From NCBI GenBank assembly GCA_964404855.1, contig CAYOLO010000001.1:158245-222244 (forward strand): 64,000 nucleotides of DNA, read 5' to 3'. Every line of letters begins with the position of its first letter. Positions within the stretch are counted from its first letter, which is position 1. This document shows, in pieces, positions 28,903-42,200 of the stretch. This DNA comes from an uncultured Gammaproteobacteria bacterium (lineage in GTDB: Bacteria > Patescibacteriota > Microgenomatia > CAYQLK01). Under the pieces are notes generated by a model. It did not search any database, was not told the DNA's origin, and saw nothing but the letters and a program-made list of their open reading frames with translations. The position numbers were made by a program, and so were the translations under genes.

Positions 28903-28992
28903 TGGCGGAGAGAGGGGGATTCGAACCCCCGATACGCTTACGCGTAAACCTGCTTTCCAAGCAAGCGCCATAGGCCTCTAGGCGACCTCTCC
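28903..28992 (-). tRNA. tRNA-Ser (anticodon GGA), class II long variable arm, CCA encoded
   Basis: Revcomp GGAGAGGTCGCCTAGAGGCCTATGGCGCTTGCTTGGAAAGCAGGTTTACGCGTAAGCGTATCGGGGGTTCGAATCCCCCTCTCTCCGCCA. Acceptor 7 bp, anticodon stem CTTGC/GCAGG with loop TTGGAAA, long variable arm, T-loop TTCGAAT. Confidence 0.85.
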
Positions 28993-29065
28993 AAGTGTGG
29001 TATTTTAGCAGAGGCTAATGCAAACCTGAACCACCAGATAAAATTGAGCTGATATAATCTAATTT

Positions 29066-29677
29066 ATGCCCACCAAGTCCAAGCCAAAAACAAAAAAAGG
29101 CGACCAACTACTCAAAAAAGCATTTAGTATTCCCGATTATCAAAATTTAGACAGGAACCTGACCAAAGAAGAAATCTTAGCTCTCAAATCCGATGTCATA
29201 AAAAGTAAATCTTTACTTAGTTGGCGAGCATATTCTCGTGTCTACAAAAAGCGGACAAAAATGTATTACATAAATATCGCAATAATCGTATTTTTGCTTG
29301 GCCTAATAGCTATAACGATTCAAGAGCCAATTGTTGCGATGCTGATTCTTTCACTGGGATTTGTAGCTTATGTTTTGGCATATATTGAACCTCCAATTGT
29401 GGAGAATAGAATTACAAGATTAGGAATAGTTAATGGGGGTAGTGCTTTCTTGTGGGCTGAGTTAGGTAGTTTTTGGTTTTCCCAAAGAAATAAACAGACA
29501 ATTCTTAATATCACTCAAAACAAACTCAGGCCTGCGCTAGTTATGATTATTGAAGATAAAGAGAGGCAAAAAATAATTAATATTTTGTCAGAACAATTAG
29601 AGTATCGAAGAGACTATAAAGGTTTTATTGTCGATAAAATGGCAGATACGCTTGTTGAAAAAGTTCCTTTAGAGTAA
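29066..29677 (+). CDS. Two-TM membrane protein, hypothetical
   Basis: 203 aa. TATAAT-like box gatataatc ~10 nt upstream. Hydrophobic helices at aa ~68–105. Confidence 0.45.
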   Translation: MPTKSKPKTKKGDQLLKKAFSIPDYQNLDRNLTKEEILALKSDVIKSKSLLSWRAYSRVYKKRTKMYYINIAIIVFLLGLIAITIQEPIVAMLILSLGFVAYVLAYIEPPIVENRITRLGIVNGGSAFLWAELGSFWFSQRNKQTILNITQNKLRPALVMIIEDKERQKIINILSEQLEYRRDYKGFIVDKMADTLVEKVPLE

Positions 29678-29788
29678 AATTCCCCTCGTTCTTTTGGAAT
29701 CAAGCGCTCGTAGCTCAGTTTAGGAAATCAGCAGAATAAATTCCCTGATATCCACTGAACTACAAACGGTCAAAATTAAAATTTGTTC

Positions 29789-29861
29789 GCGCTCGTAGCT
29801 CAGTGGATAGAGTATCAGATTGCGGATCTGAGGGTCGCAGGTTCGAATCCTGCCGGGCGCA
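29789..29861 (+). tRNA. tRNA-Arg (anticodon GCG), CCA not encoded
   Basis: GCGCTCG-TA-GCTC-AGTGGATA-GAGT-A-TCAGA-TTGCGGA-TCTGA-GGGTC-GCAGG-TTCGAAT-CCTGC-CGGGCGC-A. Perfect 5-bp anticodon stem, loop TTGCGGA (U33, G34-C35-G36). Confidence 0.75.
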
Positions 29862-29948
29862 CACAGTTTAATACAACAGGAGGGGTCGCATAAGAACCTC
29901 AAGTTAAAACTTGAGAACCTTGCTCGACTCTTTCAACGGAATAAATAA

Positions 29949-30038
29949 GGAGGGGTCGCATAGTGGACTAGTGCGGTCGTCTTGAAAACGACTAAGGGTT
30001 TACGCCCTTCGAGAGTTCGAATCTCTCCCCCTCCGCCA
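29949..30038 (+). tRNA. tRNA-Ser (anticodon TGA), CCA encoded; attachment site of the downstream integrated element
   Basis: GGAGGGGTCGCATAGTGGACTAGTGCGGTCGTCTTGAAAACGACTAAGGGTTTACGCCCTTCGAGAGTTCGAATCTCTCCCCCTCCGCCA. Anticodon stem GTCGT/ACGAC, loop CTTGAAA, long variable arm. Confidence 0.85.
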
Positions 30039-31535
30039 AGTTTTACATTCAGCGAAATTGAAAGATGTTGCCTCGGCGCAAAGCGCCTCGGCATGGTATT
30101 TTTCCGCTATTTTGAAGGCATTTTTGAAATCCAAAACCAAAGTGCGGTCGGCAATGCGGAAGTTCGAACCAATCTTTTTGAGAAAATCCCGAATCCTTTC
30201 GGGATTTTCTTGTTGAGCGTATTTTTCGGCTTGGTTGGCGTCTTTTAGAAAGGCAATGGCAAGTTCGAACCGATTATTGCTCTTTCGCCCAAAAGCATGG
30301 ATTTTTTCTTCCAAATCTTTTTTAGCGAGAATGAGCTTGTACTTTTTAGCGGTATATTCCGCTTGCGACAAATTGCCGTCCAGTTGTAAATCAAGCAAGC
30401 GATCAAGTTTTGTTTCTATCTCTACAAGCTCATTTCTCGCTTTTTGGGCGAAAGAGCTTTCCGCTTGGGCAATTTTAATTTTTTCGTTTTCGAAAAAATT
30501 GATTGATGCGTTTGCCCAAGCGGAAGACAAAGAAACTTTTTTGATTTCTTCTTTTATTTGAAAAGTGATGGCGTCCTCTCTCGCATACCTTTGCGAACAA
30601 GGATTTTTCCGTTTGGTACATCGCAAATAATTATGCCCTTTTTGCGTTTCGGTGGTAATGAAACAGCCACACTCTCCGCAACGGAAAAATCCTCTATACA
30701 CATAAGGTTTGAGTTTTGGCGATTTCGGTTTGCTTTTGTTCGCCATCACTTCTTGGCATAAATCAAAAAGTTTCTTTGTGATAATCGGTTCGTGCTTTCC
30801 GTCATACAATTCGCCGTTGTACTCAATCATTCCATAATAGATTTTGTTTTTCAGCATATACTGATAATTTGAGACGGAAAGCATTTTGCCTTTCTTGCCA
30901 ACCAAGCCCAAGGAATTGATAATCTTTCGGATTTGAGCGAGGGGGTATTCGCCAGTTGCGTACATTTCAAAAGCCCGCTTGATATATTTTGCTTTTTCTT
31001 TGTCCACGGCAATACAGCGGGCGTTTTTGTCGTTTATATAGCCCAATGGCGCCCAAGCGGGCCATATTCCATTTCGCAATTTCTGGCGAATACCCCTCTT
31101 TATATTTTCCGAAAGATTATCCACATAATATTTTGATTGCCCAAAAGCAATGGACAACATAAATTTTCCCTGCGGTGTCGGATCAAACCAAAAAGTTGGA
31201 AATTTTAGCGTGGTAATTTTTCCAGTATCCACCAAGTAAATTATTCGTCCGCCGTCTATGGAATTACGAGCAAGGCGGTCAGGGTGCCACGCTAAAATTC
31301 CTTCGGCTTCATTTTTCTCTATGCTTGCCACCATTTCGTTAAAAATCTCTCTGCCCGGCTCTTTGGCGGTTTTGCTTTCCACAAATTCACTGACGATATT
31401 TAATCCTTCCTTTTTGGCATATTCTCGCAATTCAAACATTTGTGCCTCAATACTCAAAACCTGCCTTTCGGGTTCGTCCGTGGATTTACGGGCATAGAGA
31501 AAAATCTTTTTGGTTTGTAAATTTATGTTGTCCAT
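30000..31535 (-). CDS. Large serine recombinase (resolvase/invertase catalytic domain + recombinase domain + zinc ribbon + coiled coil)
   Basis: 511 aa. N-terminal catalytic motif IFLYARKSTDEPERQVLSIEAQ (YxRxST...Q with nucleophile Ser). Zinc ribbon CGECGCF...CTKRK, then C-terminal coiled coil. Last 13 codons overlap the 3' end of tRNA-Ser(TGA) on the opposite strand. Confidence 0.85.
   Translation of the reverse strand: MDNINLQTKKIFLYARKSTDEPERQVLSIEAQMFELREYAKKEGLNIVSEFVESKTAKEPGREIFNEMVASIEKNEAEGILAWHPDRLARNSIDGGRIIYLVDTGKITTLKFPTFWFDPTPQGKFMLSIAFGQSKYYVDNLSENIKRGIRQKLRNGIWPAWAPLGYINDKNARCIAVDKEKAKYIKRAFEMYATGEYPLAQIRKIINSLGLVGKKGKMLSVSNYQYMLKNKIYYGMIEYNGELYDGKHEPIITKKLFDLCQEVMANKSKPKSPKLKPYVYRGFFRCGECGCFITTETQKGHNYLRCTKRKNPCSQRYAREDAITFQIKEEIKKVSLSSAWANASINFFENEKIKIAQAESSFAQKARNELVEIETKLDRLLDLQLDGNLSQAEYTAKKYKLILAKKDLEEKIHAFGRKSNNRFELAIAFLKDANQAEKYAQQENPERIRDFLKKIGSNFRIADRTLVLDFKNAFKIAEKYHAEALCAEATSFNFAECKTWRRGRDSNSRRA
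30033..30228. repeat. IR-1a: inverted-repeat copy overlapping the recombinase 3' coding end (partner 31568–31783)
   Basis: Revcomp of 30039–30170 is identical to 31648–31783. Further shared blocks (aaaagattggttcg; gaaaaatacgctcaac) extend it to ~30228. Contains hairpin aaaatcccgaa-tcct-ttcgggatttt (30183–30208). Confidence 0.8.
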
Positions 31536-31567
31536 ATTGTTTTGAAATTAGTTTTTGGGCAATCAAA

Positions 31568-31783
31568 GAAAAATACGCTCAACCTTTCGCCAAAGGCGAA
31601 AGAAAAAAGATTGGTTCGCAAAATTTCATTTTGCCAGAGCTTCGCTCTGCGAACTTCCGCATTGCCGACCGCACTTTGGTTTTGGATTTCAAAAATGCCT
31701 TCAAAATAGCGGAAAAATACCATGCCGAGGCGCTTTGCGCCGAGGCAACATCTTTCAATTTCGCTGAATGTAAAACTTGGCGG
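31568..31783. repeat. IR-1b: inverted copy of the recombinase 3' end located just upstream of the recombinase start
   Basis: Encodes in the + frame ...NFRIADRTLVLDFKNAFKIAEKYHAEALCAEATSFNFAECKTWR, identical to the recombinase C-terminus. Carries a 33-nt insertion (31615–31647). A different hairpin ctttcgcc-aaa-ggcgaaag sits at the position of the IR-1a hairpin. Confidence 0.8.
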
Positions 31784-32120
31784 TGTTTTTTGGACGAAGT
31801 TCGAACATTTTTTGAGCAAAACCCCCAATAAGGAAGCCAGCCCCGCCGTCGCTCGGAAACCTCGCCACCCCGCAAAAAAGTTTTCTTCACATTTTTTGAT
31901 TTGCGCGCGCCGGATTTTTTCTTCTAAAAGGAAAAGAAAACTTTTTTGCGGGGTTCTGCTCTTAACGAGCAGGACGGCGGAGCTGTCCGCTTTTTGTATT
32001 CGCTCGGGCGTGGCGGAATTCCCCCCAAACCCCCCTTCCGCCACGCCCTCGCGGGGACGATTCTTTTTTTCGGCGGAATTTGAGGCTGTATTTTGCAAAG
32101 CAAAATGCGCCACCAAAAGG
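31778..32120. repeat. IR-2a: GC-rich palindrome-dense repeat (inverted partner 37643–37985)
   Basis: ~310 nt essentially identical to the revcomp of 37674–37985. Contains an 18-bp perfect inverted repeat CCCCGCAAAAAAGTTTTC (31868–31885) / GAAAACTTTTTTGCGGGG (31936–31953). Also a 13-bp perfect inverted repeat GGGCGTGGCGGAA (32006–32018) / TTCCGCCACGCCC (32036–32048). Long ORFs on both strands are artefacts of GC-rich palindromes. Confidence 0.8.
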
Positions 32121-32280
32121 GATGTTGCACTTGACCCACCCAACCCATTCGCGGGCAACGTTAAGGAACTCCCTAAAGATTCATTTACAAAATTGTTTAA
32201 ATTAGTTATCATTATAGTATCAAGAAAGAAACCTTTATATTATATTCTATATACTATAATGTTATATAATTAGAAAAGAT

Positions 32281-32484
32281 ATGTCAAATAATAAAATTGC
32301 TGAAAACTTAAAGAAACTACGGGCTAAAAAAGGGCTTTCCCTTGAGAAAATAGCTCGCCTTGCCGATTTATCCCTTAACACTATTGTTAAGGTTGAAAAC
32401 GGAGTAAATACAAACCCAACAATTGAAACACTAACTAAGATCGCCAAGGCGCTTGAGGTTGGCGTTGATGATTTAATAAAGTAA
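32281..32484 (+). CDS. XRE-family HTH regulator; probable R-M controller (C) protein
   Basis: 67 aa: KLRAKKGLSLEKIARLADLSLNTIVKVENGVNTNPTIETLTKIAKALEV is a canonical XRE helix-turn-helix. Size and position directly upstream of a DNA methyltransferase match C proteins. Confidence 0.65.
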   Translation: MSNNKIAENLKKLRAKKGLSLEKIARLADLSLNTIVKVENGVNTNPTIETLTKIAKALEVGVDDLIK

Positions 32485-32486
32485 TT

Positions 32487-33269
32487 ATGCCAATTTTTAA
32501 TGATTTAAATTTAGATAGTTGGAAAGAATCAGAAATTTTAACTGATAGCCTTTGGATTATTCCCGAAAGAGATAAAACAGGAAAACATAATGGCTTTTAT
32601 CACGGCAATTTTATTCCGCAAATTCCACACCAGTTGATTTTGAGATATACAAAGAAAAATGAAATTGTTTTTGATCCATTTTTAGGAAGTGGGACAACCG
32701 CCTATGAAGCGGAAAGTCTAAACAGAAATTTTATCGGCGTAGATATCCAAAAAAAGCTTGTTGATTATGTCGGTAAAAATATTGAGCCAAAAAATAATTT
32801 CTCTGATTTGATTGTTGGCGATAGCACAAAAATTGAAACTTTTGAAAAAGTAAAAGAAGTTTTAAAAAATCACAAAAAGAAAAATATTCAATTGGCAATT
32901 TTGCACCCGCCATATGCCGACATAATTAAATTTAGTGATTTAAAAGATGATTTATCAAATGCCAAATCTCTAAAAGAATTTTTAGGGAAATTTGCAGAGG
33001 TTTTAAAAAATACAATTGATATTTTAGAAAATGGTAGATATTTAGCAATTGTCATCGGCGATAAATACACAGCTGGCAAATGGATACCTTTGGGATTTTA
33101 TTGTATGAATGAAGCGCAAAAATTAGGATTGACACTAAAAAGTATTATAATTAAGAATATGGCGGGCAATCGCGCCAAACAAAACAAAGAAAGGATTTGG
33201 CGATACAGGGCGCTTTCAAGCGATTATTATATTTTTAAACACGAATATATTTTAATTTTCAAAAAATAA
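32487..33269 (+). CDS. DNA methyltransferase, beta-class N6-adenine/N4-cytosine (motif I before motif IV)
   Basis: FDPFLGSGTTAYEAESLNRNFIGVDI (AdoMet motif I, ParB-Mtase/N6_N4_Mtase type) and ILHPPYADII (motif IV (D/S)PPY). Confidence 0.8.
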   Translation: MPIFNDLNLDSWKESEILTDSLWIIPERDKTGKHNGFYHGNFIPQIPHQLILRYTKKNEIVFDPFLGSGTTAYEAESLNRNFIGVDIQKKLVDYVGKNIEPKNNFSDLIVGDSTKIETFEKVKEVLKNHKKKNIQLAILHPPYADIIKFSDLKDDLSNAKSLKEFLGKFAEVLKNTIDILENGRYLAIVIGDKYTAGKWIPLGFYCMNEAQKLGLTLKSIIIKNMAGNRAKQNKERIWRYRALSSDYYIFKHEYILIFKK

Positions 33270-33271
33270 TT

Positions 33272-34171
33272 ATGGAATACATAAAATCAAAATTATCAGA
33301 CGATTTAGCGCGAAAAATTATCGGTAGTCAAGAAAAAGCAACCGAGTATTTGTTGCGATTAAACGAGATTAAGCCAATACATGCCTTAAAATTCAAAACC
33401 ATTAGCCGTGGACAAAATGCGGGTAAAAAAGTTTTAGTTTTAGAAACAAAGGAACTTTGGAAAGCCGTTGTTGATAGCTGGGATTATGAGGAAAGCAAAA
33501 AGATAATCAGAGATATTTTCAAACAGACCGAAAAATACAAAAGCGGAAAAGAAGCTGACAATGCAATGGATGTGCTTATCAAAGAATGGCAATCGTTGAA
33601 ATTGGGCGATATTGCATGGCCATTTTCGCAGGGCGCTTTTGACGAGTTTGTGCAACGAGTAAATTCTGAAAAAGAAAACGGATTTGTTAAAGATGAAAAA
33701 GTGAAAGTCGCTGCGGTAAAATATAGGCGAATAAAAGAAATAAACACTGTTAGGAATGATTTTATAGAAACATTGATTTTTGAAAAAAATAACAATATTT
33801 TGCCGACATTAAATCATAGACGAGGTGTTGATTTTTTTATCAATGGAGTTTCTTTTGATCAAAAAGTCGCAAAAAGTCCGACAAATGAATTTAAAAGGCA
33901 CTTTAAAGATGAGTGGCGAGAAGTGGCAATCAAAAAACCTGAACTTGTCGCAGAATATCTCTACAAATTCCAAGACGAAGGCAGATTTGGGGCAGACCCG
34001 AGATTATTGGTTGTTTATATTGATGAAGATGTTTCAATTGATAAAATAAGAGAGATAATAAACAAAACCGACTTAAATAATCCGGTTGAAATCAATTTCA
34101 CTTACAAACATAAAAATCTTGGTGAGAAAAATTATAAAGTGCCTTGTTTTGTAATCTTATTGCATAACTAA
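33272..34171 (+). CDS. Putative Type II restriction endonuclease (inferred from position between two MTases; candidate PD-(D/E)XK core)
   Basis: 299 aa, no MTase motifs. Candidate catalytic core ...RRGVDFFINGVSFDQKV (D...DQK). Assignment is contextual. Confidence 0.35.
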   Translation: MEYIKSKLSDDLARKIIGSQEKATEYLLRLNEIKPIHALKFKTISRGQNAGKKVLVLETKELWKAVVDSWDYEESKKIIRDIFKQTEKYKSGKEADNAMDVLIKEWQSLKLGDIAWPFSQGAFDEFVQRVNSEKENGFVKDEKVKVAAVKYRRIKEINTVRNDFIETLIFEKNNNILPTLNHRRGVDFFINGVSFDQKVAKSPTNEFKRHFKDEWREVAIKKPELVAEYLYKFQDEGRFGADPRLLVVYIDEDVSIDKIREIINKTDLNNPVEINFTYKHKNLGEKNYKVPCFVILLHN

Positions 34172-34175
34172 AATT

Positions 34176-35249
34176 ATGAATTATATCGGCAGTAAATTAT
34201 CATTATTGGAATTTTTAGAAGAATCAATTAATAAAGTAGTTGATAAAAACTGCGATACTTTTTGTGATTTATTTGCGGGAACTGGAATTGTTGGAAGTTA
34301 TTTTAAAAGAAAGGGTTATAAAATAATCGCTAATGATATTCAATATTACAGCTATGTTTTAAATAGGCACTATATAGGAAATCACAAAGAATTAAATTTT
34401 GCAAAACTAACAAAAGAAATCCCCAATTTAAAAAGTATTGATGTAAAAAATAGGAAAAATTTTGTTTGCAATTATTTATCAGATTTAAAAGGTGTAAAAG
34501 GATTTATTTATAAAAATTATTGTCTTGGAGGATCAAAAGATCAGACAGAACCACGACAATATTTTTCCGATGAAAACGGAATGCGTTGCGATGCTATCCG
34601 TCAAAAAATTGAAAACTGGAAAGAGCAAAGTTTAATTTCTAATGACGAATATTATTTTTTGATTACAAGTTTAGTTGAGTCAATTGATAAATACGCAAAT
34701 ACGGCTTCCGTATATGGTGCTTTTCTGAAAAAACTAAAAAAGACAGCTCAAAATAATTTAATTTTAAAACCCGCTGAATTGATAATAAACGACCAAGACC
34801 ACGAAGTTTTTAACGAAGATATAAATAAAGTAGCAGGAAAAATTAAAGGCGATATTTTGTATTTAGATCCACCATATAATCAAAGACAATACGCGACAAA
34901 TTATCATATGCTTGAAACTATCGCAAAATATGATAATCCTGAAATTCATGGAAAAACTGGTTTGCGCGAATATCAAAATCAAAAGTCCCTTTATTGTTCA
35001 AGGACACAAGTAAAAAAAGCATTTAAGGATTTGATTTTGAAAGCAAAAGCAAAATATATCTTTTTAAGCTATAACAACGAGGGTTTAATGACTTTAGGCG
35101 ATATTCAAGAAATAATGAGCTTACGGGGCAAATACGGTAATTTTACGAAAGAATATAATCGTTTTAAGGCGGATAAGTCAGAAAACAGAAACTATACTGC
35201 GAATAAAACTGTTGAGTATTTGCATTATGTAGTTTGTGAAAAAGCATAA
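34176..35249 (+). CDS. Dam-family (D12 class, alpha-type) N6-adenine DNA methyltransferase
   Basis: N-terminal NYIGSKLSLLEFL...FCDLFAGTGIVG (D12-class motif X/I) and DILYLDPPYNQRQYATNYH (motif IV DPPY). Confidence 0.8.
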   Translation: MNYIGSKLSLLEFLEESINKVVDKNCDTFCDLFAGTGIVGSYFKRKGYKIIANDIQYYSYVLNRHYIGNHKELNFAKLTKEIPNLKSIDVKNRKNFVCNYLSDLKGVKGFIYKNYCLGGSKDQTEPRQYFSDENGMRCDAIRQKIENWKEQSLISNDEYYFLITSLVESIDKYANTASVYGAFLKKLKKTAQNNLILKPAELIINDQDHEVFNEDINKVAGKIKGDILYLDPPYNQRQYATNYHMLETIAKYDNPEIHGKTGLREYQNQKSLYCSRTQVKKAFKDLILKAKAKYIFLSYNNEGLMTLGDIQEIMSLRGKYGNFTKEYNRFKADKSENRNYTANKTVEYLHYVVCEKA

Positions 35250-35266
35250 ACTATAAGCTATGAAAT

Positions 35267-37642
35267 ATGAAAATCCGAAAAATACAAACTATAAAAAATT
35301 ACAAATCCTTTTCGGATTTTTCTTGGGATAAATTTTGTAAAAATTGTTCCAATAACGAACAAACACTCTCTAATTACAATGTAATCTTTGGAGAAAATGG
35401 CTCTGGGAAGTCATCAATTTGTGATATTCTGAAAAATCTTTCGCAAATTCAAAATTTTCCAAACACTTCACCCGATCTCGCGGAAATAGAAATAAAAAAT
35501 GGAAGTAATCAAGTTTATAAATTTGAAAATGGAAGTTGGACACCAAACCAGTTAAATAAAAATTCCTTTTTATTTTTTGATGTCGATTTTATTAGTGCCA
35601 ATGTTCACACGCATGGCGAACGGTCAAATCAACAAGGCAGACATTCACAAAATTCAGGGAAAATGATTATTGATTTAGACGATAAGGCAAATCAGCTAAA
35701 AATCGTTGTAAAAGAAAAGAAAGAGGAATCGGATAATTTTGACAAAATTAATGCCGATATTTTAAACAAAAATTTTACCGATAAAGACAAAGAGCTTTCC
35801 GCTATTTACAAAGATAAAAGCGAACAAGAAATAAAGGATGAAATTTCAAAAAAACAGGAAGAAGCCAAAAAAATTGAGTTGGATTTATCAGCATTACAAA
35901 AGATAAACAAAAAATATTCGGAAATAAGTCAGTTACCCATTATCAATCAGCTTTCTTTCTCTTCTTCAATATCCACAAAAGAAATCTACTCGGAATTAGT
36001 TTTGAGACAGTTAAAGGAAAAAGCGCAAGATCAGGCGGACGAAAAAATAAAAGCACATTTTGAAAAACACAAAAGATTTATTGAGACAGCCAAGGATCAA
36101 ATACCGAAGGATTATCAAAAATCCGATTGTCCGTTGTGTATGCAACCCCTCGCTAATGCTTCAAAATTTATTGAATATTATAGGATTGCTTTTGATCAAA
36201 CATATGAAAACGAGAAAAGAAAATTTTTAACGGACATACAGAATTTAAAAAGTGAATTGGAAACCTTAAAATCCTCAATAAGTCTTTTACCGACAAAAGT
36301 GCTTGGAATTTTTAATTCTTTAGAAAAAATCAAAACTGATTTTGAAATTCAGGATATTTATAAACTCGAAGAAAAAACGGAATATACCGAAAAATTTAGT
36401 AAAATTTCTATCGCTCAAATAGACGAGCTTATTTTGAATTTAGAAGCGCTGAAAAGTATTGAGCGAAAAGAAATAAAACTTTCAGAAACTTATGACAAAA
36501 TAACAGACGGAGTGAAAGAAATAGCAAGTAAAATTAATGATTTTAATAAAATAATTGACGACAAAAACAAGGTCATTTCTGCGTTCAAGGGTAAATATTC
36601 TGATCAAAATAAAATTACTAACGAAATTCAGGAAAAAACTAAAAATCAAGCAGAGCTTCAAGAAACAACCCAGTTTTTAATAAATGACAAAATTCAGTCA
36701 ATCAAAAATCAAAACGCGGCGGTTCTAAAACAAAAAGCTTTGGCTGAAGTATTGAAAAAAGCTCAAGAAGATTTGAAAAATCATCTCGCCAATAGCATAC
36801 CAGAAAGCGTTATTATAAAAATGATTGATATTTTAGGAAAGTTTAATTTAAGTTTTACGCTTGAACATATCAAACCAGCACCAAACACGAAGGACTATTC
36901 TTTTTCATTTAAAATTAAAGATCAAAAAGGGCATGAGAGAGATTTTAAAGATGGGCTTTCAGAGGGCGAGCGACAGTTGATTTCCTTGGCTTTTTTCTTT
37001 TCTATCAATGAAAGTTTGTTGGACAAATCAAATATAGTTTTGATTTTTGATGACCCAATAACCAGTTTAGATTCGCCAAATTTGAAAATACTTGCCGACT
37101 TGATTCACGAAAAAACACAGGAATTTTCGCAAGTAATTATTTTTACTCATCACCCTTTATTTTATAAATATGTGGCTAAATGCGAAAATCCTAATCCGTG
37201 CAAATTTGGCGTTTTGAAAAATCATGACGCTTTTGGTGGTAGTTTTATTTTCTTTGATCCCGGATTTGATTTAACGGCAGAAATGCAAAAGTGCAATGAG
37301 GAAATAAAACAGAACGCACAAAGCGGAAATTTAAAACCCGAAGAAATTGCCTTGAAATACGGACAACTTTTGCGTCTTGCCGTTGAAAAATTTATCAAGC
37401 ACGAATTATTGATGTGGAATAAAGAAAGTAATTTTGAAAAAGAAATAATAGCAAATTTATCAAAAAGCAAAAGTAAAATTCAAAAACTAGATGACAGTGA
37501 TTTGGAAATAATGACAAACATTCATAAATACTGCAATCATTCAAACCTTTTACATGCGGATAAAGAAAATCCGTCGGCACTTTCGGAACTGATGACACAT
37601 ATTGATAAATTTGTTATTATTCAAGATAAGGTAAATCTGTAA
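35267..37642 (+). CDS. RloC-like protein: Rad50/SMC-type split ABC ATPase with coiled-coil CxxC zinc hook and C-terminal candidate anticodon-nuclease domain
   Basis: 791 aa. Walker A GENGSGKSSICDIL near the N-terminus. ~450 aa of coiled coil with central hook DYQKSDCPLCMQPL. Signature/Q-like SEGERQLISLAFFF, Walker B/D-loop VLIFDDPITSLD, H-loop IIFTHH. C-terminal ~150 aa contains R-x3-E (RLAVE) followed by His-containing segment HKYCNHSNLLH, reminiscent of the PrrC/RloC nuclease triad. Confidence 0.5.
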   Translation: MKIRKIQTIKNYKSFSDFSWDKFCKNCSNNEQTLSNYNVIFGENGSGKSSICDILKNLSQIQNFPNTSPDLAEIEIKNGSNQVYKFENGSWTPNQLNKNSFLFFDVDFISANVHTHGERSNQQGRHSQNSGKMIIDLDDKANQLKIVVKEKKEESDNFDKINADILNKNFTDKDKELSAIYKDKSEQEIKDEISKKQEEAKKIELDLSALQKINKKYSEISQLPIINQLSFSSSISTKEIYSELVLRQLKEKAQDQADEKIKAHFEKHKRFIETAKDQIPKDYQKSDCPLCMQPLANASKFIEYYRIAFDQTYENEKRKFLTDIQNLKSELETLKSSISLLPTKVLGIFNSLEKIKTDFEIQDIYKLEEKTEYTEKFSKISIAQIDELILNLEALKSIERKEIKLSETYDKITDGVKEIASKINDFNKIIDDKNKVISAFKGKYSDQNKITNEIQEKTKNQAELQETTQFLINDKIQSIKNQNAAVLKQKALAEVLKKAQEDLKNHLANSIPESVIIKMIDILGKFNLSFTLEHIKPAPNTKDYSFSFKIKDQKGHERDFKDGLSEGERQLISLAFFFSINESLLDKSNIVLIFDDPITSLDSPNLKILADLIHEKTQEFSQVIIFTHHPLFYKYVAKCENPNPCKFGVLKNHDAFGGSFIFFDPGFDLTAEMQKCNEEIKQNAQSGNLKPEEIALKYGQLLRLAVEKFIKHELLMWNKESNFEKEIIANLSKSKSKIQKLDDSDLEIMTNIHKYCNHSNLLHADKENPSALSELMTHIDKFVIIQDKVNL

Positions 37643-37985
37643 ATTTTTGGTGGCGCGCCAGTTTTCAACTGGCACAGCCTCAAATTCCGCCGAAAAAAAG
37701 AATCGTCCCCGCGAGGGCGTGGCGGAAGGGGGGTTTGGGGGGAATTCCGCCACGCCCGAGCGAATACAAAAAGCGGACAGCTCCGCCGTCCTGCTCGTTA
37801 AGAGCAGAACCCCGCAAAAAAGTTTTCTTTTCCTTTTAGAAGAAAAAATCCGGCGCGCGCAAATCAAAAAATGTGAAGAAAACTTTTTTGCGGGGTGGCG
37901 AGGTTTCCGAGCGACGGCGGGGCTGGCTTCCTTATTGGGGGTTTTGCTCAAAAAATGTTCGAACTTCGTCCAAAAAACACCGCCA
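37643..37985. repeat. IR-2b: GC-rich palindrome-dense repeat (inverted partner of 31778–32120), ending in CCGCCA
   Basis: See IR-2a. Contains the same 18-bp and 13-bp perfect internal palindromes in mirrored order. Ends ...CCAAAAAACACCGCCA|GGG at 37985. Confidence 0.8.
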
Positions 37986-38096
37986 GGGTTTTTGTTCGGT
38001 GTACAATTAATTTGTTATGTATTTTGGGCAAAAAGTAGTTGGATTTAATCAATTTTCATTTAATAAATTTTTAATAGAGGGGCGGTGAGTAGGTAA

Positions 38097-38519
38097 ATGT
38101 TTGCAACAGAAATAAACTATTTAGCAATGGTTGTAGCAGGTCTTGCGACTTATGCAATTGGAGCGTTGTGGTACTCACCTGTTCTTTTTATGAACGAATG
38201 GATGAAGGTAGCTGGCTTGGATAAAAAGAAAAATGCCAAAGTTGCTCAATCGCAGATGGTTCGAATGTACACTTTAGGGTTAATAGCTAATATGATCGCC
38301 GCTTTTGTTTTGGCAAGACTATTGGTCTGGACTAGAGCAGGGGATGATTTGGTTGGAGCTCTAAAAATCGGCGGTTGGTTGTGGCTCGGTTTTATAGCTG
38401 TTTGGATGATTAACAGCTGGTTGTACGAAAGCAAGCCAATTAAGTATTTTGTAATTAATTCTGGTTATGCCCTAGTAACTGTTCTTGTTGGAGCTGCGAT
38501 TCTTACGCTCTGGAGATAA
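38097..38519 (+). CDS. Small 3–4-TM membrane protein, hypothetical (DUF1761-like?)
   Basis: 140 aa. GALWYSPVLFMNEWMK motif and four hydrophobic helices. Confidence 0.4.
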   Translation: MFATEINYLAMVVAGLATYAIGALWYSPVLFMNEWMKVAGLDKKKNAKVAQSQMVRMYTLGLIANMIAAFVLARLLVWTRAGDDLVGALKIGGWLWLGFIAVWMINSWLYESKPIKYFVINSGYALVTVLVGAAILTLWR

Positions 38520-38530
38520 GTTAGTTAAAA

Positions 38531-38566
38531 AAAGACAGGCAATGTTTTTGGTCAGCCTGTCTTTTT
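38531..38566. terminator. Bidirectional rho-independent terminator between convergent genes
   Basis: AAAAAAA-GACAGGC-aatgtttttggtc-AGCCTGTC-TTTTTGG: perfect 7–8 bp stem flanked by A-run and T-run. Confidence 0.6.
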
Positions 38567-39214
38567 GGTGTTTTGGCTAGTTTTTTGGACAATGAACCAG
38601 AGCCAGTTATTATTGTTGGTTTCGGAGGAGGTGAAATCGATTACAGAGAAGCCGTTTCTGGTTAAAATTTCAGTAAATTCCTCCTTAGCGTAAAAAGAAA
38701 AAAATCTGCTGAAGGTTTTGTTTTGGTCAGTAACTCTTGATTTTTCGACTTCTTGAACCTGTTCGCCTTTACCTTCTTTGAGGCTGATAAAACCAATCCC
38801 GTTAACTTTTATATATTTGTTTATTTGAGTTAAGGCGAGTTCGATTTTGTTTTTTGGAACATGTAGTAAAACGGCGCTTGCCCAGAACCCATCGAATTCT
38901 GTGCCTCGTGGGAAGCTGAGGTCGTAGACACTAAATGGAAAAAATTTCGAGTTGGGGAGGGATTTTTGACACATTTGAATAAAGGATTTAGTGATATCGG
39001 TGCCTGTGTAATCGTATCCTTCGTTAATTAATCTTTTGGCATCATGACCATTTCCACATCCTATTTCTAAAATGTTACCTTTGGATAAATATTTTTTAAA
39101 AAACTTAATTTCGTCATCCTGAAAAGTCAGATTAGTAGTTGGTTTGTGCCAACTGTCAGCATTCTGTTCGTAGTATTCGACGGTTAGTTTTTCTTTGTTG
39201 GTAAGTTTTTGCAT
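38552..39214 (-). CDS. Class I SAM-dependent methyltransferase
   Basis: 220 aa. Motif I ILEIGCGNGHDAKRL and motif II-like region. Small-molecule/RNA MTase fold. Confidence 0.75.
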   Translation of the reverse strand: MQKLTNKEKLTVEYYEQNADSWHKPTTNLTFQDDEIKFFKKYLSKGNILEIGCGNGHDAKRLINEGYDYTGTDITKSFIQMCQKSLPNSKFFPFSVYDLSFPRGTEFDGFWASAVLLHVPKNKIELALTQINKYIKVNGIGFISLKEGKGEQVQEVEKSRVTDQNKTFSRFFSFYAKEEFTEILTRNGFSVIDFTSSETNNNNWLWFIVQKTSQNTKKTG

Positions 39215-39232
39215 AAAAGTAAATAATAAATC

Positions 39233-39324
39233 TGGCGGAGGGGGAGAGATTCGAACTCTCGGAAAGGAAAAATCCCTTCAGCAGTTTTCGAAACTGCCGC
39301 ACTAGTCCACTATGCGACCCCTCC
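39233..39324 (-). tRNA. tRNA-Ser (anticodon CGA), CCA encoded
   Basis: Revcomp GGAGGGGTCGCATAGTGGACTAGTGCGGCAGTTTCGAAAACTGCTGAAGGGATTTTTCCTTTCCGAGAGTTCGAATCTCTCCCCCTCCGCCA. Acceptor, D and T arms identical to tRNA-Ser(TGA) at 29949. Anticodon stem GCAGT/ACTGC, loop TTCGAAA. Confidence 0.85.
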
Positions 39325-39455
39325 ACTGCTCCAAGGACAAACCATTGGTTTTTCCTTGGTATTTCTTTTCCTAAATTGGAAAACTTGTACTGGCAGAGCC
39401 AGACACAAGTCGAATTATAATAGTTTTTATGATTGTTGGTTTTGTCTGGTAATTA

Positions 39456-40226
39456 TTAAAGAGTAGAAAATTGCAGGCGGAGGAATTTTTCCCTGAAATC
39501 TTGCGAGTGAGCAAAAAGCAGCCTGACCTTTTGAGTGGAGTAACTGATTTGAGCTTTGGTGACATTGTTAATTTGCTGACCATCGGCCATAAAAGCAACT
39601 GGGCGTCTTTCTGTGTCGAGGGCTGTTAGTGTTACTACCGAGTTGTGTGATAACTGGGCACTGCGCCAGTTGTGAAAAAGCGCTGGACAGATACCTGTGA
39701 GAACCAAATGGCGACTATCGATTGGTAAAATTTTGCCACCAGCTGAGGCGTTGTAAGAGGTTGAGCCGGCAGGAGTTGCGACAATGGCACCATCGCAGAC
39801 TAGTTTTTCAAATCTGATTTTGTCATTGACAGCTATTTCTATTCGGCAAGTTTGAGGTGTAGCTCGTTCGAAATAAAAATCATTAAAGGCTAAGGTGGTG
39901 CGAAGTTTTTTGTTACTACTAAACAGTTCGGCTTTCAGCAGACGGTTTTCGACGGTGTCAAATTCGCCGCTGATTATTTCATCAACAACATCTTCTTTGG
40001 CTTCGTTAAGCAAAAATCCTAGATGACCAAAGTTAAAACCGACGAATGGAATGTGGAGTGGATAATATTTTTTAATAGCAGTAAGCATTGTGCCGTCGCC
40101 GCCGAGCACAAGAATAAAATCAGCTTTTTGGTCTGGTTCGACTATTTCGAGCTTGCTTTTTATTTTTTTAATCAATACTGAAGAGGCGGGTAAACCTTGT
40201 CGGGAAACAAGTATGGCTTTTAGCAT
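39456..40226 (-). CDS. nadK: NAD(+) kinase
   Basis: 256 aa. FILVLGGDGTML (GGDG motif) and DGAIVATPAGSTSYNASAGGKILP (NAD kinase DG..TP.GSTAYS.SAGGP motif). Confidence 0.9.
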   Translation of the reverse strand: MLKAILVSRQGLPASSVLIKKIKSKLEIVEPDQKADFILVLGGDGTMLTAIKKYYPLHIPFVGFNFGHLGFLLNEAKEDVVDEIISGEFDTVENRLLKAELFSSNKKLRTTLAFNDFYFERATPQTCRIEIAVNDKIRFEKLVCDGAIVATPAGSTSYNASAGGKILPIDSRHLVLTGICPALFHNWRSAQLSHNSVVTLTALDTERRPVAFMADGQQINNVTKAQISYSTQKVRLLFAHSQDFREKFLRLQFSTL

Positions 40227-40306
40227 ATGGATATTTTAGTACGAAATTAAGAAAAAAGCCGACTTACACTCTTATTTGGAAGTCGGCTTTTGTTGTTGAT
40301 GTTGAA

Positions 40307-40798
40307 CTACTTGAGCGCGGTAAGCGTTTTGACAGCTTCGCGCATGGCGACGTCGAGGTAGATGGAGATGTTGGGATCACCGTCGTGGGCGGTTCCTGGG
40401 CACGGAATGTTGAGCCATTCTTCCCAGCGAATGTAGCAGCCTTGTTTGGCAGAATCTGCTCCGTATTGGGCGAAAAGGAAGTGTGTTGCATCTTCCTCGC
40501 TCATTTCTGGAGTTGTGACGCCGAACGCCGCACGGAGGTCATCACTGGTGAGGATTGTTCGTCCGGTGGTTTTGGCACGAGGGGATTGGATGACTTCCCA
40601 GTCCACGAACCATCGGTCAGTGCTAAGCTCGTCAGTCTGGCTGACGGTGAGTTTGGCCGCACTTCCCAGGATGACGAGCAGTCGTTTGGCTGCGTCGAAA
40701 CTTTTGACGTGCATTTTGAACCCGTGATGGTGGAACCACACAGGACGACCCATCCTTAGTTCAGGTTGGGTTCTGGTCATGGTTGAGGTTTGTGACAA
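40307..40798 (-). CDS. Hypothetical protein in a locally GC-rich segment
   Basis: 163 aa, no TM. Coding region ~55% GC versus ~38–42% elsewhere. No motif recognised. Confidence 0.35.
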   Translation of the reverse strand: MSQTSTMTRTQPELRMGRPVWFHHHGFKMHVKSFDAAKRLLVILGSAAKLTVSQTDELSTDRWFVDWEVIQSPRAKTTGRTILTSDDLRAAFGVTTPEMSEEDATHFLFAQYGADSAKQGCYIRWEEWLNIPCPGTAHDGDPNISIYLDVAMREAVKTLTALK

Positions 40799-40901
40799 GC
40801 GTGACCGCCTTTGTCTGGTAGTTTTAGGGGTGCTGTTAGAGTGCGAGGCGGAGAATACACTTATTTTGAAGCTATGTCAATTGTTAATTAACCTATAATA
40901 T

Positions 40902-41360
40902 TTGATTTTTGAGGCTAAATTTGATATAATTAGGGTTGGTAGCACTTTTGACAGGGAGCTTATTGGTTTGAGTAGTGACAGTTTGATCCAGTTCGGTGTT
41001 TTGGATGTGGCTCACAGTGACCCAAGCAGGACGCTGTGTGAATGCAATCTTAACGATTGCTCGGTTCAAATCATCGATGTCGAGGTGGAGATTCCGCTTG
41101 CGAACCACTACCACAAACTCAAAGATGAGACGTTTGTTCTCGTCGAGGGAGGTGGAGTGTTCTACGGTGTGGCTGTTGACGAGTACGGCAATAGGCTGGG
41201 AGAAGTCCAAGCCAGGCAGCTACTTGAAGGCGCTGTCATCAAGGTTCCGGCTTTTTTCGCTCACACTTTCATCCTTAGGTCTGGCAGTCGGCTGGTTTGC
41301 TTTTCGAGTAAGCCGTTCAACCCAGAAAACACAGATTTGCATCCACTTCAGCTTGTCTGA
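40902..41360 (+). CDS. Cupin-fold protein, WxcM/FdtA C-terminal-domain-like (sugar ketoisomerase-type), hypothetical
   Basis: 152 aa. ...ANHYHKLKDETFVLVEGGGVFYGV... resembles the His-containing beta-strand motifs of WxcM-like cupins. Weak. Confidence 0.3.
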   Translation: MIFEAKFDIIRVGSTFDRELIGLSSDSLIQFGVLDVAHSDPSRTLCECNLNDCSVQIIDVEVEIPLANHYHKLKDETFVLVEGGGVFYGVAVDEYGNRLGEVQARQLLEGAVIKVPAFFAHTFILRSGSRLVCFSSKPFNPENTDLHPLQLV

Positions 41361-41411
41361 AGAAGTGTGTGCAAAAGTCCTTTGCCCTCGATTAATTTCG
41401 GGGGCATTTTT

Positions 41412-41882
41412 TTAGTTAAGAAATTTAATAGCAAGATTGAGTAGACTAGCGAACGATACCCAAGCGATATATGGGTAAAGAAGACGAGAGGCGAGAGGAG
41501 AAAAAGGAGCGAATTTTTTGATAGTTAGAAAGATAGTTATCCAGAGAATGAGTATCTCAAATAAAGCAAACAGCGGAGATTTTAGTCCAAAGAAAATAAT
41601 GGACCAGAGTGTGTTAAGTACAAGTTGAGTTGCAAAAATAGTGATTGGTACTCTCTTGTCTTTTTTGGTTTTTGCGACCAGAACTAAATACAGTGATACG
41701 CCCATTAGGATGTAGAGTGTTGTCCAGACTGGGGCAAAAATCCAGTTCGGTGGATTGAAGAATGGCTTGTTAAGGGTTGAATACCAGGTGGGGATTGACG
41801 AAGCGGTGAAGAAGGAGCCGATACCGCCAGCAGAAAGGGAAACTAGTATTGAGAATGTAAGTTTTGGCAGGTTTAATTTCAT
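41412..41882 (-). CDS. tspO: TspO/MBR family tryptophan-rich sensory protein
   Basis: IPTWYSTLNKPFFNPPNWIFAPVWTTLYILMGVSLYLV matches the TspO signature (WY..L.KP.f.PP.w.F.PvWt.LY.lMG.). Five TM helices. Start taken at MKLNLPKL. Confidence 0.8.
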   Translation of the reverse strand: MKLNLPKLTFSILVSLSAGGIGSFFTASSIPTWYSTLNKPFFNPPNWIFAPVWTTLYILMGVSLYLVLVAKTKKDKRVPITIFATQLVLNTLWSIIFFGLKSPLFALFEILILWITIFLTIKKFAPFSPLASRLLYPYIAWVSFASLLNLAIKFLN

Positions 41883-42079
41883 TTTTTTATTTGACTGTCC
41901 TGGTTGCAAGAAATCTGGCGGAGAGGGAGGGATTGGATTTTTAGTCCATTTACCTCAAAACTCGTAATTTATTTATAAAATTTTAACAAATTACTCGTTT
42001 TTCGTTACCGAACCCTTGTGGTGGTTCAAAACAACCTACCCTCATATTTTTCATTACTGCCAACGCAGTTACGAAAAAT

Positions 42080-42172
<93 letters not shown>

Positions 42173-42200
42173 CAGAGCTTGTATATTCTACCTGACTGGC

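Follow-up and report, generated by a model that had tools for sequence, protein, structure and literature searches.

Small islands for which large serine recombinases (LSRs) use the 3' end of a single conserved housekeeping gene as insertion site are known from the staphylococcal and enterococcal cassette chromosomes (SCC) and their Ccr recombinases. SCC elements use rlmH (orfX) as target, are bounded by short direct repeats, often carry restriction-modification or defence cargo and occur in tandem or composite arrays as well as in the form of recombinase-less cassettes. Tycheposons leave partial tRNA copies at their far end and often carry replication genes. In the passages covered, the preprint on tycheposons, which were described in Prochlorococcus, presents them as small modular cargo islands at tRNA genes that are enriched in defence or adaptive cargo, of which a minority uses LSRs and nearly all use tyrosine recombinases, and reports no modules bounded by inverted repeats (bioRxiv 10.1101/2020.12.28.424599). 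The integrases LI/A118, phiC31, Bxb1, TP901-1 and TnpX share the LSR order of a resolvase domain, a recombinase domain and a zinc ribbon with a coiled coil, and for the LI integrase it has been described that the motif for the zinc-ribbon domain is shifted by 5 bp between attB and attP (PMC3783163). In mycobacteriophage BPs, attP lies inside the repressor gene, so that integration swaps the C-terminus of the encoded protein (PMC4557955).

Here, we describe an island of about 8 kb beside a tRNA-Ser gene in a window of 64,000 nt, which is the whole stretch of DNA that was analysed. In line with the original prediction, the data support an integrated mobile element at the 3' end of tRNA-Ser that is driven by an LSR, and we regard this mobility as real. 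We propose that positions 30033-37985 probably represent one integrated copy of a two-module island family, which is carried by a distinct LSR clade. A full-text literature search retrieved no description of such a two-module inverted-repeat architecture, which is hence undescribed in the literature covered.

A recombinase module and a cargo module within separate inverted repeats

The island is composed of an R module, the LSR gene within the inverted repeat IR-A, and a K module, the cargo within the inverted repeat IR-B (Table 1). The IR-B arms span 312 nt including the core and are 100% identical over the 306 nt beyond it, and the IR-A and IR-B pairs meet exactly at the hexamer CCGCCA. That this hexamer recurs at three junctions and that the repeat arms are GC-rich had both been predicted and was confirmed here, with GC contents of 0.47-0.53 for the arms versus 0.25-0.40 for the cassette and the flanks. 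The hexamer alone, for which a chance origin had been considered, is uninformative: 39 copies are found in the window versus 15.6 expected, of which each of the four tRNA-Ser genes of the window contributes one as its 3' end, with two more in a hairpin in each B arm. The signal that lies far beyond chance is the two abutting long inverted-repeat pairs, and the repeated short core does mark real att-type junctions, in the order tRNA/A (attL-like), inverted B/A (attP-type) and B/host trailer (attR-like).

Table 1. Features of the island and of its target gene, in window positions.
Feature	Position	Strand	Remarks
tRNA-Ser(tga)	29949..30038	+	target gene; terminal CCGCCA = first IR-A bases; ARAGORN, Rfam
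Junction S1, tRNA/A, attL-like	30033..30038	+	minimal core CCGC 30033-30036; following CA from element
IR-A, tRNA-side arm	30033..30166	.	134 nt, 100% complementary to 31650-31783
LSR gene, 511 aa	30000..31535	-	Pfam PF00239, PF07508, PF13408
Unique leader 'u', upstream of LSR gene	31536..31649	-	90-96% conserved in relatives
IR-A, cassette-side arm	31650..31783	.	inverted copy of LSR 3' coding end
Junction S2, B/A on minus strand	31778..31783	-	complete attP-type site, inverted inside element
IR-B, recombinase-side arm (B')	31778..32089	.	outer ~40 nt = conserved P-type arm; TTCGAA 22 nt from core
Latent frame, WRCFLDEVRTFFEQNPQ and stop	31778..31831	+	conserved native LSR C-terminus; separate from gene in this arrangement
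Terminator-like hairpin, pointing into cassette	31972..31988	+	consensus match only
Cassette leader	32090..32280	+	32090-32176 conserved in relatives with other cargo
Promoter-like site in cassette leader	32184-32212
HTH_3 control (C) protein, 67 aa	32281..32484	+
N6_N4-class DNA methyltransferase, 260 aa	32487..33269	+
299-aa protein, candidate restriction endonuclease by position only	33272..34171	+
D12-class (Dam-like) DNA methyltransferase, 357 aa	34176..35249	+
AAA_13 ATPase, 791 aa	35267..37642	+	best match PADLOC candidate defence family PDC-S06
IR-B, distal arm (B)	37674..37985	.	second latent tail frame at 37985-37932 (-)
Terminator-like hairpin, mirror copy	37775-37791	-	consensus match only
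Junction S3, B/host trailer, attR-like	37980..37985	+	CA = displaced original tRNA end

The tRNA-side arm of IR-A serves two reading directions. Its minus strand encodes the last ~43 residues of the LSR ahead of W-R codons at the core, and its plus strand provides the tRNA with a trailer in which a hairpin precedes a T run. Owing to their internally palindromic sequence, the arms form strong folds on either strand (z = -3.5 and -4.5). An Rfam search of the whole window returned nothing in the GC-rich arms, and a conserved non-coding RNA is unlikely to reside there, since family-wide conservation is limited to the outer ~40 nt. We also rejected a 229-aa ORF across B'-A' (31523-32212, minus strand) as a GC-driven chance ORF; it lacks a Pfam match and is not called in all relatives.

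The LSR gene overlaps the tRNA gene by 39 nt, as had been noted from the sequence, and its product contains the Resolvase (PF00239, E = 2e-20), Recombinase (PF07508, 1e-16) and Zn_ribbon_recom (PF13408, 5e-7) domains. The catalytic serine motif Y14-x-R16-K17-S18-T19 and the zinc-ribbon cysteines C286, C289, C306 and C313 are invariant in 30 homologues. Sequence matches in the PDB cover the catalytic domain only (3g13, 3bvp (TP901-1) and 2mhc (TnpX)), and an AlphaFold2 model of homologue P0034, which is 83% identical to the LSR of the window, predicts long helices at residues 338-385 and 391-441, as expected for the coiled coil inserted into the zinc-ribbon domain of LSRs. The best NCBIfam matches are CcrB, XisF and CcrA, all of which are far below threshold (CcrB 94 bits versus a cut-off of 900, CcrA 64 versus 700). 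In the suggested comparison with large serine integrases, the identity to the LSRs in phage and plasmid collections was 31% or less; homologues reach 96%. As only five relatives were found in viral contigs versus at least 590 in genomes, we ruled out that the element is served by a prophage integrase. No candidate for a recombination directionality factor was identified.

The cassette had been predicted to contain two methyltransferases and a restriction endonuclease under the control of a C protein. The HTH control protein (PADLOC control-protein match 4e-10) and the N6_N4 and D12 enzymes, which match type II methyltransferases in PADLOC (3e-98 and 8e-114), were confirmed, whereas the endonuclease label could not be established. 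The 299-aa ORF has no family match and its predicted structure (pLDDT 79) is without a nuclease fold; solely its conserved place between the two methyltransferases makes it a candidate restriction endonuclease. The methyltransferase/299-aa/methyltransferase block is also found without an LSR, and in about two thirds of the relatives the cassette begins with the HTH_3 control gene. RloC is a Rad50-like ATPase with a zinc hook and a C-terminal anticodon nuclease domain. The 791-aa protein, which had been proposed to be an RloC-like ATPase/nuclease, matches AAA_13, AAA_21 and SMC-type ATPases only, with PDC-S06 as best PADLOC family, and no RloC model was matched among the Pfam, PADLOC and NCBIfam profiles, so that this label could not be established either.

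Attachment sites and a recombinase tail encoded across the core

Comparison of the junctions narrows the crossover to the 4 nt CCGC, which form the core common to the relatives (acceptor positions 71-72, discriminator G73 and C74). A shared att core therefore exists as predicted, but it is shorter than the proposed 6 nt, as the CA that follows in the window is derived independently from the A arm of the element and from the CCA-encoding tRNA gene of the host. From CCGC onward, S1 and S2 have the same sequence, and S3 departs from S2 directly behind it; the halves of the junctions can be written as T/A for S1, B/A for S2 and B/C for S3. GC is the only dinucleotide common to all target subfamilies; it is palindromic and would not alone impose the strict polarity observed, and crossover mapping by dyad symmetry was inconsistent between subfamilies. 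The start of the motif TTCRRW is 17 nt away from the core in 34 of 41 tRNA arms and 22 nt away in 37 of 45 B arms. This 5-bp offset (TTCGAA in the window) agrees with the signature published for attP and attB of large serine integrases and is seen in the left arms only; the A arm is poorly conserved and could not be classed as P'-type. The right flanks of S3 are unrelated sequences, with a terminator-like hairpin of their own in at least one case (L019).

We propose that the LSR would insert a circular molecule composed of R and K by an attP x attB crossover within CCGC, at the discriminator/C74 of tRNA-Ser, and that the A arm would restore the CA end of the tRNA and add a hairpin and a T run behind it. 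For the middle junction, the better reading is that of an entire attP, kept inverted inside a single two-module element. Canonical LSRs can do without an intact attP inside the integrated element, and none is known to keep one; LSRs are also not known to recombine attP with attP. Against our best explanation, it can be argued that, with an active LSR, an intact attP would pose a hazard, as the same window contains three more tRNA-Ser genes with attB-like sites that are unoccupied. A neighbouring tRNA-Ser(cga) gene lies at 39233. The empty site of this host would read tRNA-Ser 3' end and then GGGTTTTTGTTCGG, and the joint of an excised circle would by itself have the same sequence as S2. Neither an excised circle nor an empty site was seen for this host; the search for the tRNA/trailer junction in metagenomes, a check that had been recommended, gave nothing for it, and exact-protein look-ups with the LSR and the ATPase yielded no sister assemblies.

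The last 15 amino acids of the native LSR are encoded on the far side of its own recombination site. Both B arms encode WRCFLDEVRTFFEQNPQ followed by a stop codon in frame, and this tail frame is open in 36 of 38 distinct S2 copies, with the third codon positions being the most variable. In the integrated LSR, the last 11 codons are antisense to the tRNA, and the protein ends in ...WRRGRDSNSRRA as opposed to the native ...WRCFLDEVRTFFEQNPQ; the tRNA-joined tail, which is set by the tRNA sequence, has the form RGRDSNPR.... The native tail is present at the actual end of the LSR in ~20 of 120 homologue clusters, and AlphaFold2 predicts a helix at residues 498-513, which spans the junction (pLDDT ~86). 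Since the core lies within the LSR reading frame, integration would swap the conserved, B-arm-encoded C-terminal helix for an antisense-tRNA peptide. The WRCFLDEVRTFFEQNPQ tail is translated only when the LSR gene adjoins a B arm. The native tail would be regained whenever the 3' end of the LSR gene meets a B arm, that is by excision (S1 x S3), in K-R-K arrays or when R is flipped onto S2. We also considered that the S2-side copy of the LSR C-terminus might encode a mini-protein of its own and rejected it: its start codon is not conserved and the open stretch varies from 32 to 154 codons.

One might speculate, although we consider it rather unlikely, that a self-contained switch is written into the attachment sites and acts on the activity or the directionality of the recombinase. 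In such a switch, the native enzyme (tail CFLDEVRTFFEQNP) would arise solely from the gene in its excised or B-joined state, given that the attP core interrupts the reading frame, the tRNA-set tail could lock or re-direct the enzyme without a separate directionality factor, and the internal inverted attP together with IR-A would constitute a reactivation device, in which a rare flip of R re-fuses the gene to the B' tail. The presence of the same arm at both ends of a module would permit cargo exchange in either orientation, like a natural recombinase-mediated cassette exchange. Engineered cassette exchange that works in both orientations, for instance MiMIC, likewise places a segment between two inverted attP sites. 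The island provides a natural case of an integrated element that retains an intact attP, and a recombinase C-terminus that is set by the adjoining site could matter for the directionality control of genome-engineering integrases.

Family survey and alternative explanations

We surveyed 84 loci, in which IR-A was scored where enough upstream sequence was available and IR-B where at least 8 kb were. We detected IR-A in 51 of the 59 loci that could be tested and IR-B in 23 of 34. In 66 of 73 loci, the 3' end of the LSR gene adjoins a tRNA gene (tRNA-Ser of all four anticodon classes in 52, tRNA-Gln in seven, tRNA-Glu in five, and tRNA-Asp and tRNA-Asn in one each). The same architecture is present in relatives down to 54% recombinase identity, mostly from Patescibacteria and Elusimicrobia. 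Cargo and tRNA-Ser isoacceptor vary from locus to locus; restriction-modification or defence genes make up most of the cargo, which also includes a Na/Ca exchanger, a sulfatase and RadC. Strict conservation of the region among distant relatives had been named as a finding that would speak against a mobile element; the architecture is indeed conserved, but at four tRNA-Ser isoacceptors and other tRNAs and in different hosts with different cargo, which argues for mobility. LSRs that are 91-96% identical occur in MAGs labelled Magasanikbacteria, Paceibacterota, Saccharibacteria, Andersenbacteria and Elusimicrobiota, pointing to horizontal transfer. The genomes of Patescibacteria are tiny, and few mobile elements have been recognised in them. 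Given the occurrence of relatives in at least 590 species-level genomes, the movement between classes and the prevalence of restriction-modification and defence cargo, the family may be a major route of defence-gene exchange in Patescibacteria. It also offers a large natural set of LSR, attP and attB (tRNA) triplets with a readable site logic.

The view of the cassette as a mobilised unit is supported: the cargo behaves as exchangeable, relatives hold other cargo between arms of the same kind, and recombinase and cargo modules also occur in alternating arrays. It had further been suggested that recombinase module and defence cassette form two distinct units, which inserted serially and independently at a tRNA-derived core and regenerated this core each time. 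Modules do assort combinatorially, with R modules of the same kind joined to different B types and cargo, and both R-K-R-K arrays and K-R-K arrays with different B types are seen in L053, L066 and L101. In addition, the hybrid locus L010 has A arms of two types, the R module of L084 is chimeric with an A arm of a different type on the tRNA side, and the methyltransferase block without an LSR mentioned above fits an independent cassette. However, insertion of a single module at one tRNA would give tRNA/B' or A'/trailer joints and free modules would carry palindromic A'/A or B/B' joints, none of which was found in 2.2 Mb of related loci. R without K is seen only between two convergent tRNA-Ser genes (L067) or, conversely, R is lost in metagenomic deletion scars in which the tRNA is followed by just an A stub. 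Moreover, conservative site-specific recombination cannot generate modules with the same arm at both ends, because each arm stays attached to its own segment, and such modules, whose arm pairs evolve in concert, therefore appear to be an ancestral and maintained feature. We consequently regard serial insertion as improbable.

A phase-variable switch, in which either the cassette or the recombinase gene is inverted by the recombinase to turn restriction-modification on or off, is in our view highly improbable. Long perfect inverted repeats surround both segments, R is flipped in L084 and L074, K is inverted in L019, and the same LSR with the same cargo has been recorded in both K orientations in different samples, although these records are short-read assemblies through repeats longer than k, some of which may be path errors. 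On the other hand, flipping K leaves its transcriptional context unchanged, as the invertible segment itself contains the promoter-like site together with the control gene and both arms have the same inward terminator-like hairpin; the change of expression upon inversion that defines invertons and shufflons is thus not expected for K. There is also a strong orientation bias: the HTH gene adjoins S2 in most loci, and R has its standard orientation at 66 of the 68 genome loci where a tRNA lies next to it and in all 16 informative metagenome contigs, 24 others ending inside the A arm. The junctions also show the attP/attB asymmetry of integrases, unlike the two equivalent sites of an invertase. 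Both serial insertion and phase variation are poorly supported as explanations. As a separate lead, inversion of R would change the recombinase tail only. That the inverted repeats and the middle junction result from repeats mis-joined during metagenome assembly has a negligible probability, for while relatives often lie where a contig ends and the arms are a frequent place of contig breaks, the same architecture with arm pairs that are 97-100% identical is seen in dozens of independent assemblies, including contigs of 0.4-1 Mb and the record of a complete 5.9-Mb chromosome, and IR-A falls below the maximum k-mer sizes in common use and assemblies run through it.

Comparison with known systems

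The two-module island resembles SCC in its LSR-driven insertion at a conserved 3' gene end, its restriction-modification or defence cargo, its composite arrays and the occurrence of cassettes without recombinase. Unlike SCC, it targets the 3' end of a tRNA gene and not rlmH, it has one recombinase gene, far below the Ccr family cut-offs, instead of ccrAB, and its sole direct repeat is the core of 4-6 nt. We know of no long inverted-repeat pairs, internal inverted attP or recombinase tail encoded across the site in SCC. With the large serine integrases of phages and ICEs, the island shares an attP-arm motif that lies 5 bp further from the centre than in attB, and hybrid attL and attR products. 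It differs from the elements of these integrases in its size of 8 kb without phage or conjugation genes, in a right half of attB that is not conserved and in the persistence of an intact attP in the integrated state. From tycheposons, which it otherwise resembles as a modular island at a tRNA gene, it is set apart by its serine recombinase and by a distal junction that repeats CCGCCA only and no tRNA segment.

The circle predicted for the island would be analogous to the yeast 2-micron plasmid with its FLP/FRT system, in which two long inverted repeats contain the recombination site and the recombinase gene lies in one unique segment; in contrast to 2-micron, no replication function is evident in the island. 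Similar to phage BPs, the attachment core is located inside a reading frame and the C-terminus of the encoded protein is exchanged on integration. Whereas in BPs the repressor is affected and the integrase is a tyrosine recombinase, in the island it is the recombinase's own gene that is split by the core, with spare tails present in both B arms.

Architecture of the island and its junctions

The sequence CCGCCA, which the original prediction had placed at every junction of a composite element at tRNA-Ser(TGA), is present at all three positions named. By itself the hexamer proves little, as the window contains 39 copies (15.6 expected), including the ends of all four tRNA-Ser genes and two copies in the hairpin of each repeat arm. 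The strong signal is that two inverted-repeat pairs meet at this hexamer, namely IR-A, whose A arms bound the large serine recombinase (LSR) segment R, and IR-B, whose B arms bound the cargo segment K (see table). The arms are GC-rich, as had been proposed (GC 0.47-0.53), and the recombinase expected to overlap the tRNA 3' end was found. The five-gene cassette following it had been described as a C-protein-controlled unit with two methyltransferases and a restriction enzyme; the control protein and both methyltransferases were recovered, but not the restriction enzyme label. The RloC-like label of the ATPase was not supported, as the protein matches no RloC model.

Features of the island and its surroundings (window coordinates unless a locus of a relative, L-number, is given)
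Feature	Location	Strand	Description
tRNA-Ser(tga)	29949-30038		target gene
LSR gene	30000-31535	minus	511 aa; all three LSR Pfam domains; 39-nt overlap with tRNA
IR-A	30033-30166 / 31650-31783		134 nt, 100% identical; encloses LSR gene
IR-B	31778-32089 / 37674-37985		306 nt identical outside core; encloses five-gene cassette
B-arm tail frames	31778-31831; 37985-37932	plus; minus	WRCFLDEVRTFFEQNP-type, in frame
Conserved leader	32090-32176; L084 11798-11885; L008, L011, L002		~90 nt
HTH control protein		plus	67 aa; cassette
N6_N4-class methyltransferase		plus	cassette
299-aa protein		plus	cassette; no family match; candidate nuclease
D12-class methyltransferase		plus	cassette
AAA_13 ATPase		plus	cassette; 791 aa; best PADLOC family PDC-S06
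Methyltransferase/299-aa/methyltransferase block	32487-35249; L102 9216-11972; L104 1612-4368		conserved operon
Unoccupied tRNA-Ser genes	28903, 39233, 42081		potential targets
23-nt direct repeat	41911-41933; 42076-42098	minus	ATCCCTCCCTCTCCGCCAGATTT; copies 165 nt apart
GC-rich stretch	40250-41300		GC 0.52-0.55 vs ~0.38
tmRNA gene	23031-23483		Rfam 105 bits; absent from ARAGORN output
A-stub scars without R	metagenome contigs L128, L147, L148, L154, L162, L164, L185		at tRNA-Ser genes

The methyltransferase block also occurs in other genomes without an accompanying LSR (L102, L104). The 299-aa protein it encodes shows 82-95% identity among widely differing taxa, including bacteria of several phyla and an Altiarchaeales MAG; family and fold comparison revealed neither an annotated function nor a recognisable fold. 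The leader, located just inside the recombinase-side B arm and upstream of the control gene, carries a GTTGC...GCAAC-type hairpin and is kept even with differing cargo.

Written in one orientation, the junctions read tRNA arm-core-A (S1), B-core-A (S2, inverted in the window) and B-core-host trailer (S3). Due to this composition, S1 and S3 resemble attL and attR and attP would be B-core-A, which makes S2 a putative complete attP copy, inverted, between R and K. Across relatives, S1 and S2 are identical from CCGC on, whereas S2 and S3 differ directly after it, and this comparison delimits a core of acceptor positions 71-72, the discriminator G73 and C74 (CAGC in the Gln clade). All six bases are common to the window junctions because the A arm starts with CA and the host tRNA gene encodes CCA. 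The core-proximal 40 nt of B are strongly conserved family-wide; A is conserved weakly and the trailer not at all. The distance from the core to the start of a TTCRRW motif is 17 nt in the tRNA arm (34/41) and 22 nt in the B arm (37/45), and the zinc-ribbon-domain motif of the LI integrase sites is displaced by the same 5 bp between attB and attP (PMC3783163). The shift supports assigning B to the P-type arms and the tRNA to the B-type arms.

Neither an excised circle nor an empty site was found for the window's host by metagenome junction search and exact-protein look-ups, and no candidate directionality factor was identified for the LSR. As an apparently intact attP persists near three unoccupied tRNA-Ser genes, the recombinase might be tightly repressed or present as an inactive integrated isoform. 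The four tRNA-Ser genes (gga, tga, cga, gct) lie with tRNA-Arg(gcg) within 13 kb (28903-42173), and comparable Ser/Arg clusters are found in the relatives L007, L013, L015 and L041. The 23-nt repeat, consisting of the tRNA-Ser(gct) 3' end and 5 nt of trailer, looks like an att scar that a lost or miniature element left at a second tRNA-Ser gene. The GC-rich stretch between tRNA-Ser(cga) and tRNA-Ser(gct) resembles neither arm type, and its ORFs have at most a weak Pfam match.

Module arrangement and orientation among relatives

Every R segment has A arms and every K segment B arms at both ends. An A arm is capped solely by a tRNA (or tRNA remnant) or a B arm, and a B arm solely by an A arm or an unrelated trailer. 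R can lie between two convergent tRNA-Ser genes (L067), and K-R-K and R-K-R-K arrays occur in which one R is flanked by different B types (L066, L101, L053). The original prediction had invoked serial site-specific insertions or a cassette system mobilised by the recombinase. The junctions expected if single modules inserted independently, that is tRNA-B', A'-trailer (primes denoting inverse sense) and palindromic A'-A or B-B', were not found in 2.2 Mb of loci. The prediction is partly supported: an element at tRNA-Ser with att-like junctions stands, serial insertion is poorly supported and no RloC match was seen. Conservative site-specific recombination never parts an arm from its own segment, so it cannot account for the like-armed segments, and the arm pairs probably derive from an ancestral duplication that is maintained. 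They appear to undergo concerted evolution, as arms are 97-100% identical within a locus but diverge between loci (A ~87%, B ~63%), even where the LSRs share at least 90% identity.

In the scars, the tRNA is followed by an A stub of 20-70 nt, and in L147 and L162 B' comes directly after this stub. The stub often stops where the hairpin and T run end, so that some tRNA-Ser genes seem to have kept their trailers and terminators from such islands. In the three-unit array of L053, the inter-unit spacers (1900-2081 and 5475-5653) are one repeated sequence of ~180 nt resembling a trailer plus degenerate tRNA 3' end, which is outside the reach of a simple integration model.

Of the 68 genome loci where a tRNA adjoins, 66 have R in the standard orientation, in which gene and tRNA converge, as do all 16 informative metagenome contigs; R is flipped in L084 and L074. 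In L084 (9776-12242), the R module is a recombinant: the A arm beside the tRNA and the 5' portion of the LSR gene belong to another sub-clade than the gene's 3' portion. The control gene adjoins S2 in most loci and lies at the far arm in L019. Identical LSR proteins accompany the same cargo in both orientations in different samples (P0097, L085/L089 vs L086-L091; P0060, L233 vs L234), as recorded in short-read assemblies across repeats longer than k; L085 can alternatively be read with R at the opposite end of K. Inversion is unlikely to act as an on/off switch of the cassette, because the promoter-like site lies inside the cassette and the inward-facing terminator-like hairpin is the same in both arms.

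A recombinase tail across the core

The LSR frame passes the core as TGG CGG (W-R), and the next 11 codons in the window are antisense tRNA. The majority of homologues likewise continue into the tRNA (WRRGRDSNPR...), and a second class, ~20 of 120 homologue clusters, ends WRCFLDEVRTFFEQNP..., exactly the tail that both window B arms encode. Of 38 distinct S2 copies, 36 have this frame open, with a stop after 17-22 codons; its third codon positions vary most (1.14 bits vs 0.81 and 0.70). In an AlphaFold2 model of a homologue with the B-arm tail, where zinc ribbon and coiled coil are present as expected, a helix (498-513, pLDDT ~86) runs across the junction. From the tail classes, open frame, codon variability and helix, we infer that the coding sequence for the native C-terminus extends across attP and that this terminus is lost upon integration. 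It would be regained after excision, in K-R-K arrays or by a flip of R onto S2.

Spread of the family and comparison with known systems

LSR homologues are very numerous, with up to 94% identity in the protein search and 96% in the locus search. Relatives are encoded in at least 590 species-level genomes, most of them MAGs of Patescibacteria and Elusimicrobia; only five were found on viral contigs, and none above 31% identity in curated phage or plasmid records. In a census of 84 loci, IR-A surrounds the LSR gene in 51 of the 59 with enough upstream sequence, and IR-B surrounds a 1.3-7.9 kb segment in 23 of the 34 that extend at least 8 kb upstream. In 66 of 73 loci, the 3' end of the LSR gene lies directly against a tRNA gene, in 52 cases tRNA-Ser of all four anticodon classes, and sub-clades are found at tRNA-Gln, Glu, Asp or Asn. 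Horizontal spread is indicated by LSRs 91-96% identical to that of the window in MAGs assigned to separate candidate phyla or classes, and at more than one isoacceptor. Cargo varies between loci, mainly comprising control proteins, methyltransferases, GmrSD/HNH, type I and SNF2-type genes, along with Na/Ca exchanger, sulfatase, RadC and LexA-like genes.

The protein shows the defining large serine recombinase features that were tested. A Ccr, XisF or phage-integrase orthologue was ruled out by family and sequence comparison, identity to phage and plasmid proteins being at most 31%. Full-text literature searches turned up no account of the island architecture. Similar to SCC-type elements and tycheposons, it is a cargo island at the 3' end of a conserved gene, but it differs from both in that its modules are bounded by inverted repeats, an inverted attP is retained and the recombinase tail is split, and also in its host range.
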